Shown here: piece by piece, positions 2,110 to 24,950 of the stretch
Position numbering within the stretch: position 1 is the first letter of the stretch
Layout: each line of letters starts with the position of its first letter
Origin: a virus
Taxonomy: Duplodnaviria; Caudoviricetes
Virus record (IMG/VR): IMGVR_UViG_2765235998_000001
Span: 24,865 to 88,864 of that record
Strand: one strand, 5' to 3'
Length of the DNA stretch: 64,000 nt
Notes under the pieces: model-generated
Told to the model about the DNA's origin: nothing
The model's database searches: none
What the model saw: only the letters and a program-made list of their open reading frames with translations
Position numbers and translations under genes: made by a program

Positions 2110-2367
2110 ATGAGCATCACCAGCCCCGAGACGACGACCACCAGCCCCGACGACAACCCGTCCTACCGGGACGGCCGCATCGACGGCGAACTCGCCGCCA
2201 TCACCCGCCTGTCCTCCCGCCGCGCCCACGCCCGCGCCTCCATGGCCGCCCAGTACGACCAGGCCTACGCCGACGGCTACATGGACGGCTTCCTCGACCA
2301 GACCGCCGCCAACGCCGCCCACCGCCTCAAGGCGCTCCTCGCAACCAGCCGGAAGGACCCCCAGTGA
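2110..2367 (+). CDS. Hypothetical protein (YxDG repeats)
   Basis: GGAG RBS; SYRDGRIDG and AYADGYMDG. Confidence 0.6.
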   Translation: MSITSPETTTTSPDDNPSYRDGRIDGELAAITRLSSRRAHARASMAAQYDQAYADGYMDGFLDQTAANAAHRLKALLATSRKDPQ

Positions 2368-3026
2368 AAACCCGCATAGCCCAGGCCGCCTTCGCCCTGA
2401 CCCTCACCGCGGCCGCCGTCATCGCCGCCCCCCACCAGGCCCACGCCGCCACCGGCCCGGTCGTCTCCGGCACCGGCTGGAAGCTCCAGGCACCCCGCAT
2501 CACCCACATCGACACGCAACCCCTGACGATCGCGTTCCACGACACAACCAGCCGCACCCGGCTCACCCCCTACGTGAAGAACGTCGCCGCGGAACTCACC
2601 TCGTACGGCATCCCGGTCACCGTCTCCAACCGCATCGTGCCCACCGCCGTCGGCAAGTGCCCGCCCAGACACACCATCAGCTACCGGTGGATCAGCAAGC
2701 CCAACCCCGACAGGCCCAACCAGTCCTTCACCGGCACCTGCTCCCTCAAGGCCGCCACCTACAGCGCCTACGTCTACATCAACAGCGACTACTGGGCGCC
2801 CGGCCGCCGCTTCCACGAGTGGCAGCGCATGAACGTGATCTGGCACGAAAGCGGCCACGCCGTCGGACTCGCCCACCCGACCACGTGCCCCCGCGACAAG
2901 GCCGGCCTCCAGCCCCTCATGTGCGGCAACCCCTACAAGGACCTCCGCGACCGCCGCTTCTCGTCGCAGGACGTGACCGGTCTGCGCCGCCTGGTCCTCA
3001 ACCGCGCCTACTACCCGCCGGCATGA
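2364..3026 (+). CDS. Secreted metzincin Zn-metalloprotease (matrixin/M10-like)
   Basis: Signal peptide ending AHA; HESGHAVGLAH (HExxHxxGxxH) and Met-turn PLMCG. Confidence 0.8.
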   Translation: MKTRIAQAAFALTLTAAAVIAAPHQAHAATGPVVSGTGWKLQAPRITHIDTQPLTIAFHDTTSRTRLTPYVKNVAAELTSYGIPVTVSNRIVPTAVGKCPPRHTISYRWISKPNPDRPNQSFTGTCSLKAATYSAYVYINSDYWAPGRRFHEWQRMNVIWHESGHAVGLAHPTTCPRDKAGLQPLMCGNPYKDLRDRRFSSQDVTGLRRLVLNRAYYPPA

Positions 3027-11578: not shown

Positions 11579-11973
11579 GCGTGTGGGGCACGATCTTCGA
11601 CCTCGAGGACAATCCGCCGTACCGGTACGAGGGCTCGCACGTTCTGCCGTCCGTGGACGGACCGCGAGATCCCGGCTGCCCCGTGCAGCTGGCGGAAGTC
11701 CCGTCACACATCACCCGGGACGGGCGTGACGACCAGCCTGAGGATGGGGCGCCGTGGCCGTGGCTGCGGGCCTCTCTGGGCCGGGAGGACGCCGTGCTGG
11801 ACCGGTCGCAGGTTCAGGGCCTGTGGGAGGCCATGGGCGCCTGGCTCGAGCAGACCAAGCCCCCACCACCCCCGGCCCGGCATGTCGGTGGCGGGGCGAA
11901 CGCGGAGGACTGCCCGGGCTGCAAGGGCACCAACCCGCCGTACCCGTTCATCTGCCCCGGGGAGGACCGGTGA
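11575..11973 (+). CDS. Hypothetical protein with C-terminal NAEDCPGC..PYPFIC module
   Basis: Coupled ORF. Confidence 0.6.
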   Translation: MSVWGTIFDLEDNPPYRYEGSHVLPSVDGPRDPGCPVQLAEVPSHITRDGRDDQPEDGAPWPWLRASLGREDAVLDRSQVQGLWEAMGAWLEQTKPPPPPARHVGGGANAEDCPGCKGTNPPYPFICPGEDR

Positions 11974-12617
11974 GCGGGCCGGGGCGGGCGCCGGTGGAGT
12001 GGGCGGACAGGGAGCGCCGCAACGCCAGGAAGGGGGTACGGCGGAAGGTCCTGGCCTGGGCCGGCCTGAACCCTGCGGCGAAGCGCGCGGACGACCTGAT
12101 GGTCCGGGCGCGGCATGGTGCGGTGGGCGAGGAGTGGACTGCCGCGCTGCTCGCGCAACTCCCGGCGGGCTGGACGGTGTTCCACGGACGGAAGCTGTCC
12201 GGCTTCAGCAACGACTACGACCACGTCCTCATCTCCCCCTGCGGGACCGCGGTGGTGACGCTGGATTCGAAGCGCTGGCATGCCGGCCTCGAGACGGTAC
12301 TGGTGCGGGGCCGGGTGTGTTGCGGTCGGGAGGACCGGCATAAGCAGGTCACGGCGGTGGCCCGGTATGCGGGCCGGTTGGAGCGGGCGTTGAATCTGCC
12401 GGGGGTTCAGGTGTTGCCGCTGCTGGTGGTTCACGGGTCGCGGGTGCGGGGCGGTTTCCTGTCGGCGCGTGTGCCCGGCTGGGAGGGTGTGGTGCATGTG
12501 CTGGGCCCGGAGTATCTGGTGCCGACGCTGGTCGCGGCTCCGCGGGGGGTGCATGTGGGGCGTGCTGCTGCGCTGGTCGCGCATGTGGACCGGGTTCTTC
12601 CGGCCGGGCCGGGGTGA
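11970..12617 (+). CDS. NERD-domain nuclease-related protein
   Basis: GAVGEEWTA..L..GWTVFH..DYDHVLISP..VVTLDSKRW. Confidence 0.8.
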   Translation: MSGPGRAPVEWADRERRNARKGVRRKVLAWAGLNPAAKRADDLMVRARHGAVGEEWTAALLAQLPAGWTVFHGRKLSGFSNDYDHVLISPCGTAVVTLDSKRWHAGLETVLVRGRVCCGREDRHKQVTAVARYAGRLERALNLPGVQVLPLLVVHGSRVRGGFLSARVPGWEGVVHVLGPEYLVPTLVAAPRGVHVGRAAALVAHVDRVLPAGPG

Positions 12618-12890
12618 GGCGTACGGTGGGCGGGCGTTACCGCCTGGGGGGCACCCGTTGTGCGGGCCGTCAGTCTTCGGACTGGCGGCCCGCTTTCGTG
12701 CGTTCCGGGCCCGGGCGCAGTGATGCCCCGGTCTCGACGGGGGTTTGCGAGGCCGGGGCGTACGGCAAGTGTGGCATGCGGGACTGACAGTGGGCTGTGA
12801 TGCGGGGCCGACCGGTCCTCCGCCGACAGAGGACCGGCCACCATGCCCGGCACGCCTACCCCGTCTTGCCGTTCTGGCACGCGGAGTTGG

Positions 12891-12943
12891 GCGTGGGGTC
12901 TGGGGTGCGCCGCTTCCCCTCGGGCACACTCCAGGCCCCACGC
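12891..12943. terminator. Long hairpin between convergent transcription units
   Basis: gcgtggggtctggggtg / cactccaggccccacgc, 11 nt beyond the peptide gene stop. Confidence 0.7.
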
Positions 12944-12954
12944 ATTTACCGTGG

Positions 12955-13242
12955 CTATCCCCAGGTGGTGTCGAGGGGTGTGAGCAGGTTGCCGACGGTG
13001 TCGGTGACGGGCTGCACGATGGGGGTGGTGTCGATGGGCGGGGTTCCCCAGGTGGTGTCGTTCGCGGTGTCGGGGGCACCCCACGTGGTGTCCGGGGGTC
13101 CGGTGATCAGGTCGGCGGCCAGGGCCGTTCCGGTGGCGGCTGCGGCGGCGAGGCTGAGGCCAGCGGCGATACGGCGCAGGCGGCTCAGGCGGCGTAGTGG
13201 GGCGGTGGCGGGTCGGGTGGCTCGGTGTCGTCCTTGGCTCAC
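12955..13242 (-). CDS. Secreted pre-propeptide with three DTTWG repeats (candidate signalling peptide precursor)
   Basis: GGAGG RBS; basic N-region, hydrophobic core and ALA cleavage site; DTTWG x3, the last ending at the stop codon. Confidence 0.8.
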   Translation of the reverse strand: MSQGRHRATRPATAPLRRLSRLRRIAAGLSLAAAAATGTALAADLITGPPDTTWGAPDTANDTTWGTPPIDTTPIVQPVTDTVGNLLTPLDTTWG

Positions 13243-13520
13243 GGGTGTCCTCCGGTGGTTGGTTGTCGTGAAAAAGATAGTGGGGCGTCTGGCCCGGTTC
13301 TCGTGCTCCCGTCCGCCTGCTGCGATCCCTCAACTGCGGTCCCGTTTCCTGGCAGTGGACGGGTGCAGTGCGAGAGAAGGAGGGGGGAGTACGAGCGTCG
13401 GGGGACGCCCCATGAGGATGCTGCCGTAGGCTGATTTCACTCTCAACGGTTATCGGATGCTTGTTTGTGCATTGCTTCTTCGTGCAGTGCGCCGCCTTGT
13501 TTTGACGGGGGATCATAGCG

Positions 13521-14612
13521 TTGGCCATGGATTGCACAGGCGGTGACAGACCTGTTCTGTCGCAGGGCGCGGTGGACGCATTCGCGCTGATCGCAGCGGG
13601 TTTGCCGGTCCCGGAGGGGGATCAGGATTGCGTCAACGAATTGATCACCTGGGGATACGTGGTGATCGATTCCGAGCACGGAAACAGACCAGTGGCACTC
13701 GACCCGGACGACGTCTCCCGCCGGCTCCTCGAACAGGAACTGCGTGAAGCGAACCGGCGCGTCCAGAAGATGACGGTTCTTCCGTCGATCACGCAGCAAT
13801 TGGCGGGCCCTTTCCAGCGGGCCAAGTTGCGTGCGGGCGGGGGATCCGAGTACATCGCGGACGCGGCCGTGGTCAATGCCCGCCTGGACGATGTGGTGGG
13901 CTCGGCGGAGTGGGAGATCCTCGCCGCGCAACCGGGCGGGCCGCGTACGGAGGTTCAGCTGAACCGTTCCGTCGAACGCGACACCGCCGCCTTGGAGCGG
14001 GGGGTCGCGAAGCGGACGCTGTACCGGGCGACGGTCCGCGACAATGCGATCACCTGCCAGTACGCGCGCACCATGACCACCCGCCCGACGGGCAAGTCGG
14101 CTGAGTTCCGTACGCTGGTCGGCCCGTTCGAGCGGGCCATCATCGTCGACCGGCGGGTGGCGTTCATCTCCAACCACCTGGTGGCCGGCGCCCCCGAGCA
14201 TGCGGCCTGGCAGGTCACCGACCCCGGTGTGATCGCCTACATGGTCGCGGAGTTCGACGCGAAGTGGCGGCGCGCGGACCCGTGGCACGGGGAACTCGCC
14301 CGCCGCGGCCGGGAGGAAGTCGACACGGTGTCCGGGCCGGCCGCGGTCCGCACCACGCCACGCCAGCGGGAGATCCTGCGGGACATTGTGGTGGGGCGTG
14401 CTCAGCAGGCGACGGCGCAGCGGTTGGGGATTTCGTTGCGGACGCTGGGTGTGGAGATCGCGGAGTTGAAGTCGTTGTTCGACGCGGAGAGTCTGCCGGA
14501 GCTGGCATTCCGGTGGGCGTTGTCTCCGGACCGGCTGGTCGACGACACCGACCACACCACCGACGTGGGCGGGGCGGGGGCAGAGGGCGAGGGCGAGGAA
14601 GCGGCGGCCTGA
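13521..14612 (+). CDS. TrmB/PLD-like ligand-domain plus LuxR-type HTH transcriptional regulator
   Basis: AEWEILAAQPGG..RGVAKRTLY..FERAIIVDRRVAFI; C-terminal TPRQREILRDIVVG..ATAQRLGISLRTL..IAELK. Confidence 0.8.
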   Translation: MAMDCTGGDRPVLSQGAVDAFALIAAGLPVPEGDQDCVNELITWGYVVIDSEHGNRPVALDPDDVSRRLLEQELREANRRVQKMTVLPSITQQLAGPFQRAKLRAGGGSEYIADAAVVNARLDDVVGSAEWEILAAQPGGPRTEVQLNRSVERDTAALERGVAKRTLYRATVRDNAITCQYARTMTTRPTGKSAEFRTLVGPFERAIIVDRRVAFISNHLVAGAPEHAAWQVTDPGVIAYMVAEFDAKWRRADPWHGELARRGREEVDTVSGPAAVRTTPRQREILRDIVVGRAQQATAQRLGISLRTLGVEIAELKSLFDAESLPELAFRWALSPDRLVDDTDHTTDVGGAGAEGEGEEAAA

Positions 14613-24837: not shown

Positions 24838-24950
24838 CCAGCGGCTGCAAATCCGCTGGTGCTGCTTGGACGGCCTGGCACCTGAGTGAGCTGCGAACTC
24901 TCTCTGCTGGGCCGTCTTGCGTTTCCGGGTGCCGTGGCTGCGATCACGGC
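24838..24950 (-). promoter_or_regulatory. Structured rep leader (two hairpins with related loops)
   Basis: ccagcgg-ctgcaaat-ccgctgg; gccgtg-gctgcgat-cacggc; gacggcc/ggccgtc pairing. Confidence 0.45.

Follow-up and report, generated by a model that had tools for sequence, protein, structure and literature searches.

A predicted secreted peptide with repeated D-x-x-W cores and its divergent TrmB/PLD-like–LuxR regulator: a conserved gene pair of a Streptomyces-type siphophage-plasmid and its relatives

The DNA analysed here (the window) is a stretch of 64,000 nucleotides comprising positions 24,865 to 88,864 of contig C18 (IMG/VR record IMGVR_UViG_2765235998_000001), which belongs to an 11-Mb Streptomyces-type genome. 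The last 249 bases of the contig are identical to its first 249, and this self-overlap identifies it as a circular replicon of about 88.6 kb. It encodes a portal, a large terminase, a major head protein, a 1936-residue tape measure and tail proteins, and since it is circular and carries a full set of siphophage structural genes we describe it as a siphophage-plasmid. The subject of this study is a pair of divergent genes within the window, 278 bp apart, one coding for a small predicted secreted precursor that contains the pentapeptide DTTWG three times, and the other for a regulator that combines a TrmB/PLD-like part with a LuxR-type helix-turn-helix (HTH). The features of the locus are listed in Table 1.

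Table 1. Features of the peptide–regulator locus (positions in the window).
Feature	Position	Strand	Basis or remark
Hairpin, likely terminator	12891..12943 (approx.)	-	directly 3' of peptide stop; -42.8 kcal/mol
Pro-peptide gene	12955..13242	-	95 aa, GTG start, TAG stop 12955-12957; open reading frame (ORF) list
DTTWG copy 3, exact C-terminus	12958..12972	-	sequence; stop follows directly
DTTWG copy 2	13045..13059	-	sequence
DTTWG copy 1	13078..13092	-	sequence
Predicted signal peptide, residues 1-42	13117..13242	-	manual reading of translation
Intergenic region, read as shared control region, 278 bp	13243..13520		alignments of 14 and 18 loci
Box A, GGGGCGTC	13283..13290		inverted copy of part of box B
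Box B, CGGGGGACGCCCC, 13 nt	13399..13411		invariant in 18/18 aligned loci
Two adjacent TGC..GCA hairpins or palindromes, then T-run	13458..13502	+	just 5' of regulator ribosome-binding site
Regulator gene, 363 aa	13521..14612	+	ORF; TTG start
Winged HTH (residues ~15-59) and 40-residue long helix (62-104), TrmB/TrmBL2-like	13563..13835	+	AlphaFold2, Foldseek
PLD-like alpha/beta domain, residues ~106-255	13836..14285	+	structural alignment; proposed peptide-binding domain
LuxR/GerE-type HTH, four-helix, residues ~275-340	14343..14540	+	Pfam GerE and structural matches

The peptide gene, the regulator gene and the region between them

The peptide gene has a Shine-Dalgarno sequence, GGAGGA, about 6 nt 5' of its GTG codon, and its third-position GC content of 0.83 fits coding DNA in a window of 69.5% GC. 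As read manually from the translation, the precursor begins with a basic segment containing RR pairs, followed by an 18-residue hydrophobic stretch rich in Ala, Gly and Leu and by an A-L-A site after residue 42. This leaves a predicted mature part of 53 residues, rich in Pro, Thr and Asp, in which the three DTTWG copies are accompanied by degenerate DTA, DTTP and DTVG units. Five stop-to-stop frames ending in D..WG are present in the 11-Mb genome, and the window peptide is the only one with at least two copies. The hairpin that follows the gene has a z score of -3.37, with one of 200 shuffled sequences folding equally well. No family for the peptide was found in Pfam, NCBIfam or PHROGs.

The TTG start of the regulator gene lies within a motif, TTGGCCAT, that is conserved in the aligned relatives. 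The protein was modelled with AlphaFold2 from a 25-sequence alignment (mean predicted local distance difference score 79.6, predicted template-modelling score 0.46); beyond residue ~255 the model consists of a low-confidence disordered linker and then the LuxR-type HTH, whose four helices span residues 280–339. The top Foldseek matches are TrmBL2 (5bpi/5bpd, E 5e-12) and TrmB (3qph, E 1.3e-8), followed by PLD-fold nucleases. When aligned with VIA-align, residues 106–255 match NucT with a Z score of 17.5 and a root-mean-square deviation (rmsd) of 2.7 (137 aligned), and TrmBL2 and TrmB give Z scores of 17.4 and 14.8 with a high whole-chain rmsd (15.1 and 11.8); the C-terminal HTH matches those of RhlR, TraR, GerE and phage VqmA (Z 10.5–11.2, rmsd 1.2–2.1, 64–69 residues), with individual values of 11.2 for phage VqmA-DPO, 11.2 for RhlR and 10.8 for TraR.

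Sequence profiles recognize less of the protein. Pfam GerE matches residues 279–329 with an E-value of 0.0013 and 18.7 bits, below the cut-off of 23.5, and NCBIfam and PHROGs give nothing beyond a weak C-terminal HTH. There is no match to Pfam TrmB, and membership of TrmB holds at the level of the fold only, neither Pfam nor NCBIfam giving a sequence-family match; the sugar-binding barrel subdomain of TrmB is not present in the model after residue ~255. No Pfam match to TPR repeats was found and no TPR protein is among the structural matches listed. Autoind_bind is likewise without a Pfam match, and the matches to RhlR, TraR and QscR cover model residues ~274–339 only. The viral structures of BFVD yielded matches to single domains only (PLD or HTH) and none spanning the whole regulator.

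The catalytic motif of PLD enzymes is H-x-K-x4-D. In the alignment its first and last residues persist as H227 and D234 with the expected distance between them, but the window protein has Ala in place of the lysine, and this loss makes an enzymatic role unlikely. The PLD-like domain is nevertheless the best conserved part of the regulator: in 71 peptide-linked regulators, 15 of the 21 positions conserved at 90% or more fall within it, including five arginines (R142, R160, R197, R205 and R211), two aspartates and one glutamate.

The pair is flanked by a plus-strand gene run, whose last member has a NERD (nuclease-related) domain (11754–12617), and by a minus-strand run from 15118. A preliminary description of the locus had noted a 95-residue ORF with a ribosome-binding site, signal peptide and downstream hairpin, three DTTWG copies with degenerate units between them, and a head-to-head arrangement where two gene runs converge; all of this can be read directly from the sequence and the ORF layout, and the coordinates given for the repeats were exact. 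Its TrmB/PLD-like regulator with a LuxR HTH is supported by the model, Foldseek and VIA-align alike. What it called a ligand domain does exist as a PLD-like domain, and is a ligand domain by analogy only.

Blocks of the intergenic region are better conserved across the phage-plasmid relatives than the flanking genes are, and we read this region as the one through which the regulator would act. Box A lies 114–124 nt before box B in the window and in all 27 phage-plasmid-type loci where both were found, and box B is separated from the regulator start by 142–146 nt across 26 aligned sequences (135 nt in locus L057). The consensus fold of the leader between box B and the start contains two hairpins, with 4 of 17 pairs changed on both sides and a covariation term of -0.36, and a terminator-like site is called at 13467–13492. 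The repeat element just upstream of the regulator could be a structured leader RNA or a set of palindromic operators, and as the covariation is weak we do not choose between them. Between boxes A and B, RNAalifold kept only an invariant long-range stem without covariation, and an Rfam scan of 12600–13700 returned two sub-threshold chance matches only. A conserved intergenic micro-ORF was considered and rejected, as neither its start nor its stop is conserved in the alignment.

Conservation of the pair and divergence of the core

Homologues of the regulator are numerous. A search of 1.84 billion proteins gave 508 cluster representatives at E≤1e-30, and tblastn with the regulator recovered 104 plasmid records and the phage Chymera. 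At the same threshold, 106 genomes of a 401-genome family sample contain a homologue, including 95 of 134 in one genus group, and this sample contributed 29 further loci. In a phylum sample, matches occur in 10 of 10 genomes of the same family and in 6 of 390 from all other families. Thirteen plasmid and phage loci were retrieved, with a further 22 genome and 23 viral loci from two collection scans. Among the 13 retrieved from plasmids and phages, 10 have a small divergent ORF annotated as a coding sequence, and all 10 of these ORFs have a signal peptide and two or three D-x-x-W-G copies, the last of them C-terminal.

All loci were then scored by a fixed rule, which called a peptide frame if a stop-to-stop frame of at least 35 residues ended in D-x-x-W plus 0–2 residues, lay within 1.2 kb of the regulator match, and contained upstream a run of 11 or more hydrophobic or small residues preceded by a basic one. 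Such a frame adjoins the regulator homologue at 78 of 120 loci: 46 of the 59 on plasmids, phages, genome contigs and viral contigs, 23 of 29 in the family sample, 6 of 29 in the phylum sample, and all three enlarged chromosomal loci. The same rule applied to the whole 11-Mb host genome yields 15 frames, or 0.0055 per 4 kb, and three of these 15 are real-looking peptides that adjoin three of the four regulator loci of the genome. The association of peptide and regulator is thus far above chance. The preliminary description had proposed to look for a conserved peptide ORF with co-varying cores beside regulator homologues, and on this point the outcome is strongly positive. Divergent orientation is seen at 59 loci, is typical of phages and plasmids, and mostly goes with several cores; the remaining 19 loci are convergent with a gap of 48–348 bp, which is the layout of chromosomal loci, including the three enlarged ones.

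A number of the loci without a call have recognizable causes. In eight near-identical regulators an XRE-type gene replaces the peptide gene, one locus has an insertion sequence upstream, L031 has a truncated regulator, the peptide of L032 is without its C-terminal copy, and L071 and L073 are cut by contig ends. Others fall just outside the criteria, such as the peptides of L101 and L102, which end in E-H-Q-W-T, and a four-copy peptide with a C-terminal extension (L091). In tandem regulator arrays the 1.5-kb flanks may fall short of the peptide, and the five weak phylum matches L116–L120 are probably not family members. The neighbourhoods read contain no conserved kinase, exporter or modifying enzyme beside the pair. 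We regard the pair as almost certainly a real and conserved functional module.

The module is found on ~90-kb plasmids, in phage Chymera, in prophages, and in a chromosomal slot next to dnaK-hspR. In Chymera, a temperate phage of 34.7 kb, it adjoins the integrase and immunity repressor genes, a position that suggests the lysis-lysogeny region, and the predicted signal-peptidase site, A-Q-A, directly precedes the first DPGWG. In three complete Streptomyces genomes the pair lies beside dnaK-grpE-dnaJ-hspR (L134 7782–8839, L135 8461–9680 and L136 8774–9950), where the flanking genes are 80–92% identical, the regulators are mutually 34–40% identical, and the cores are DHSWT, DLNWG and DLAWT. The preliminary description had spoken of a phage system: the element is indeed a phage-plasmid, and what does not hold is phage specificity, the family being genus-wide in Streptomyces with chromosomal members.

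Altogether 72 distinct peptides were collected, of which 18 have one core, 26 have two, 25 have three and 3 have four. All share the signal-peptide layout of the window precursor, the hydrophobic stretch being demanded by the detection rule itself, and all share the C-terminal placement of the last core, which the rule likewise imposed (at or within two residues of the C-terminus); internal copies were not demanded. In 44 of the 54 peptides with 2–4 copies every D..W core has the same sequence, with unrelated spacers in between. With spacers unconserved and cores kept identical within a peptide, the short core is, as far as the sequences tell, the unit under selection.

There are 30 different C-terminal cores, among them DTTW, DTAW, DVGW, DTGW, DSAW, DWGW, DTWW, DSTW and DTHW, together with many singletons. 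The residue after the W is mostly G, with N, T, D, Q, A, E or no residue as alternatives, and 8 of the 72 peptides end on the W itself (L047, L070, L085 and L103 are examples). The DTTWG originally put forward as signal core therefore stands as a repeat of this precursor, and the constant unit of the family is D-x-x-W and not DxxWG; for the same reason the active unit here may be DTTW, not DTTWG.

A quick maximum-likelihood tree of 54 regulators contains a clade with DTTWG, a clade with DTAWG, DTGWG and DTWWG, and a clade with DVGWG, and core switches occur within clades (to DSTWG, and to DTHWG on a long branch of 0.74). DTAWG is the core of the pSAM1 type. Among nearest-neighbour pairs of regulators, five that are 76–83% identical have different cores: DSKW/DSTW, DYAW/DIWW, DLSW/DLAW, DWHW/DWGW and DIRW/DFQW. 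The core thus appears to turn over quickly between related regulators, which looks like diversification of the pherotype kind.

Two further peptides are present in the host genome of the window element, both encoded divergently to a regulator paralogue that lies a few hundred bases away. One (C19 64701–66074) has a single core and ends in DPIWG; the other, ending in DTVWD, borders one end of an array of five regulators in tandem (C7 228940–234231). Additional regulator paralogues in tandem are also seen in the dnaK-adjacent slots.

Proposed sensing of the peptide and the alternatives

We consider it reasonably probable that the peptide is exported, processed and sensed by the neighbouring regulator. 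The small gene would encode a pre-pro-peptide exported by general secretion, with removal of the signal peptide after residue 42, and extracellular proteases would cut the ~53-residue pro-peptide into up to three short D-T-T-W(-G) peptides, the last of which needs one cut only because it is at the C-terminus. The peptide would accumulate with the density of cells carrying the element and be imported by an oligopeptide permease of the host; the host genome has 14 SBP_bac_5 binding-protein genes of the oligopeptide type, an unspecific indication that an uptake route exists. Inside the cell the peptide would bind the conserved arginine-rich PLD-like domain of the regulator, whose conserved residues would suit a pocket for the constant Asp, the Trp and the carboxylate of the peptide. 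Binding would alter occupancy by the regulator of the conserved intergenic boxes, and probably of other promoters of the element, so that the pair, along with functions of the phage-plasmid (its induction, maintenance or transfer, for example), would be expressed according to the density of the element, whatever the sign of the regulation.

Two genes are noted as candidate processing enzymes. A secreted metalloprotease gene of the metzincin type directly follows the peptide gene in one relative (L025 974–1753, minus strand), and the early region of the window has a weakly metzincin-like ORF at 2364–3026.

Several observations weigh against sensing of the peptide by its neighbour. No targets of the regulator were found beyond the intergenic region; box B occurs once in the window, with no other exact copy, and when up to two mismatches are allowed 8 sites are observed versus 19.5 expected, so that there is no excess marking a regulon. 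The invariance of D and W among the matches is partly set by the search rule. Linked genes share a history, and cores that track regulator clades are therefore not proof of recognition. The share of divergence that falls in the PLD-like domain, relative to overall divergence, is 0.98 for pairs whose cores differ versus 0.83 for the others (15 and 18 pairs), a weak trend that is confounded by locus type and carries no significance test. In TrmB, sugar binding by the PLD-like domain requires a second subdomain, which the window regulator lacks, and no ligand is known for TrmBL2, the closest structural relative. Pairing is also not strictly one to one: tandem arrays of up to 5–7 regulators have one detected peptide, the peptide of L032 has lost its C-terminal copy, and the eight near-identical regulators without a peptide gene are spread over large plasmids and chromosomes of different species.

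Some of these points would be accounted for if the regulator controls the peptide gene and the peptide, which would not be its ligand, acts outside the cell. Its receptor could then be a membrane protein whose gene lies elsewhere, or the peptide could act on neighbouring hyphae, competitors or incoming phages, and the regulator would answer another cue or none, like the chromatin-type TrmBL2. Plain coupling of a regulator to its target fits the pairing and the strongly conserved intergenic region, the multi-regulator arrays and peptide-less regulators speak against a strict pairing of signal and receptor, and the best structural match is a protein that has no known ligand. Even so we judge this explanation unlikely. 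The neighbourhoods read show no conserved gene for a candidate membrane sensor next to the pair, the strong conservation of the PLD-like domain is hard to explain without a partner, and the rapid change of cores at 76–83% regulator identity suggests a co-evolving partner, for which the regulator is the only constant neighbour.

The peptide might instead be an exported structural or surface factor, active in superinfection exclusion or cell-wall binding, with D-x-x-W as binding repeats and a link to the regulator that reflects shared ancestry only. Temperate phages often place exclusion genes beside their lysogeny regulators, and the Pro/Thr-rich pro-peptide of the window looks unstructured. 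This is quite improbable, given that 18 of the 72 peptides have a single core at the very C-terminus after a non-conserved spacer, that spacers are not conserved while cores stay identical, and that some members occupy the core chromosomal dnaK-hspR slot with no phage around. We judge it very improbable that the small protein is matured into a modified ribosomal product (for example a Trp-modified one), each of its repeated cores being processed by enzymes encoded elsewhere, with the regulator as pathway regulator. Identical repeated cores with an invariant Trp do recall multi-core precursors and the Trp-prenylated ComX, but conserved modifying enzymes are absent next to the pair on plasmids, phages and chromosomes alike, a secretion signal is atypical for precursors modified in the cytoplasm, and the lysogeny region of Chymera carries the pair alone. 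The absence of such enzymes near the pair had been claimed at the outset, and was borne out as far as the check extended: 9 neighbouring ORFs searched against Pfam and 10 against PHROGs gave NERD, HNH and unknowns. An isoprenyl transferase gene or two-component sensor of the ComQXPA type was likewise found neither among the immediate neighbours (Pfam, PHROGs) nor in the annotated relatives.

Sensing of a processed peptide by the adjacent regulator is best read, by analogy, as the logic of arbitrium and the RRNPP systems built from non-homologous parts in a new phylum. To our knowledge, all known cases of peptide quorum sensing with an intracellular receptor, and of phage arbitrium, come from Bacillota and have TPR receptors. 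As in arbitrium (AimP-AimR-AimX of Bacillus SPbeta-like phages), a temperate phage carries the gene for a predicted secreted pro-peptide beside that of a cytoplasmic transcription factor, the last few residues are the presumed signal, the peptide differs between related phages, and the Chymera pair occupies the lysogeny region. Unlike arbitrium, the receptor would be a TrmB/PLD-like protein with a LuxR HTH and not a TPR protein, the genes are divergent or convergent and not co-directional, there are up to four cores per precursor, the host phylum is Actinomycetota, chromosomal members exist too, and no counterpart of aimX is recognized as an output.

With the wider RRNPP group (Rap-Phr, NprR-NprX, PlcR-PapR, PrgX and Rgg-SHP) the pair would share the two-gene logic of a pro-peptide and an intracellular receptor, and an adjacent gene for a predicted secreted pro-peptide, by which such systems are recognized, is present at the 78 loci described above; the C-terminal signal is suggested by position and conservation. 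The receptor is non-homologous and the D-x-x-W signature is unlike known peptides, and the earlier wording, "analogous but non-homologous", was a fair one. Pherotype-like diversification, and carriage by chromosomes, plasmids and phages, are further likenesses (PMC10075063).

The regulator also resembles, and departs from, known families of each of its parts. It shares with the archaeal TrmB and TrmBL2 the predicted winged helix, a long helix of the dimerisation type and the PLD-like domain, but it is bacterial and carried on mobile elements, a LuxR-type HTH replaces the sugar-binding barrel of TrmB, and it would bind a peptide. Its C-terminal HTH of four helices is that of LuxR-type receptors, including VqmA of vibriophage VP882, which is a precedent for a phage-borne receptor of a diffusible signal; here, in contrast, the sensing domain has neither PAS nor the fold that binds acyl-homoserine lactones, a further DNA-binding domain lies at the N-terminus, and the proposed signal is gene-encoded.

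A broader proposal, which we advance tentatively and would not as a whole call probable, is that Streptomyces has a genus-wide language of short D-x-x-W pheromones, released from exported precursors and read by cytoplasmic TrmB/PLD-like–LuxR receptors. In it the hypervariable, pherotype-like locus next to dnaK-hspR would be the chromosomal carrier, phages and phage-plasmids would use dialects of their own (here DTTWG in three copies) to gauge the number of neighbours in which the element is already present and adjust its induction, maintenance or transfer, and the peptide-less regulators would be eavesdroppers. No description of D-x-x-W peptides or of this regulator class was found in the literature, most subscription journals being outside the coverage.

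Should the pair signal, the same logic would have been invented a second time from unrelated parts, and a synthetic peptide of 4–5 residues together with one regulator would give direct experimental access to the way density steers actinophages and phage-plasmids in their decisions. The broader proposal, if true, would add the first family of ribosomal peptides for quorum sensing in Actinomycetota and a non-RRNPP counterpart of arbitrium. Signals of actinobacteria are typically small molecules made by enzymes, according to PMC10075063, and the BldK permease is presumed to import a peptide signal that has not been identified, according to PMC9640686. D-x-x-W peptides would be candidates for that signal, a link that is speculative. 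DTTWG itself was rejected as the 655-Da BldK signal, the calculated masses of DTTWG (~578 Da) and DTTW (~521 Da) not matching. The module might bear on the peptide signals of Streptomyces development and antibiotic control, and natural peptide–regulator variants would supply orthogonal switches for engineering antibiotic producers.

Related plasmids and further loci

In size, C18 is similar to the 88–94-kb Streptomyces plasmids that bear the same regulator. The NERD gene precedes the peptide gene in the window, and annotations of several related plasmids show this neighbour too.

The eight regulators without a peptide gene retain the conserved residues. At the two of these loci that were inspected (L023 2104–2373 and L040 2611–2712), an intergenic frame ends in RRDSAWGC and is without a signal peptide; this frame may be a relic, and the peptide-less regulators may be "solo" receptors.

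For the chromosomal slot, SCO3664-3666 may be the dnaK-adjacent locus of S. coelicolor, a lead only, drawn from the gene numbering of the dnaK operon, the sizes tabulated for LuxR-family proteins in PMC3282765 and a list of mutants in PMC6585502. Single-core peptides with DVGWG or DAGWG form a group (L066 8–2233, L050 and L051) whose immediate neighbours are gyrA and a gene for DUF3566. In this group "viral" contigs of ~54 kb have the peptide gene as their exact starting point, so the module may lie at a prophage boundary or be part of the host.

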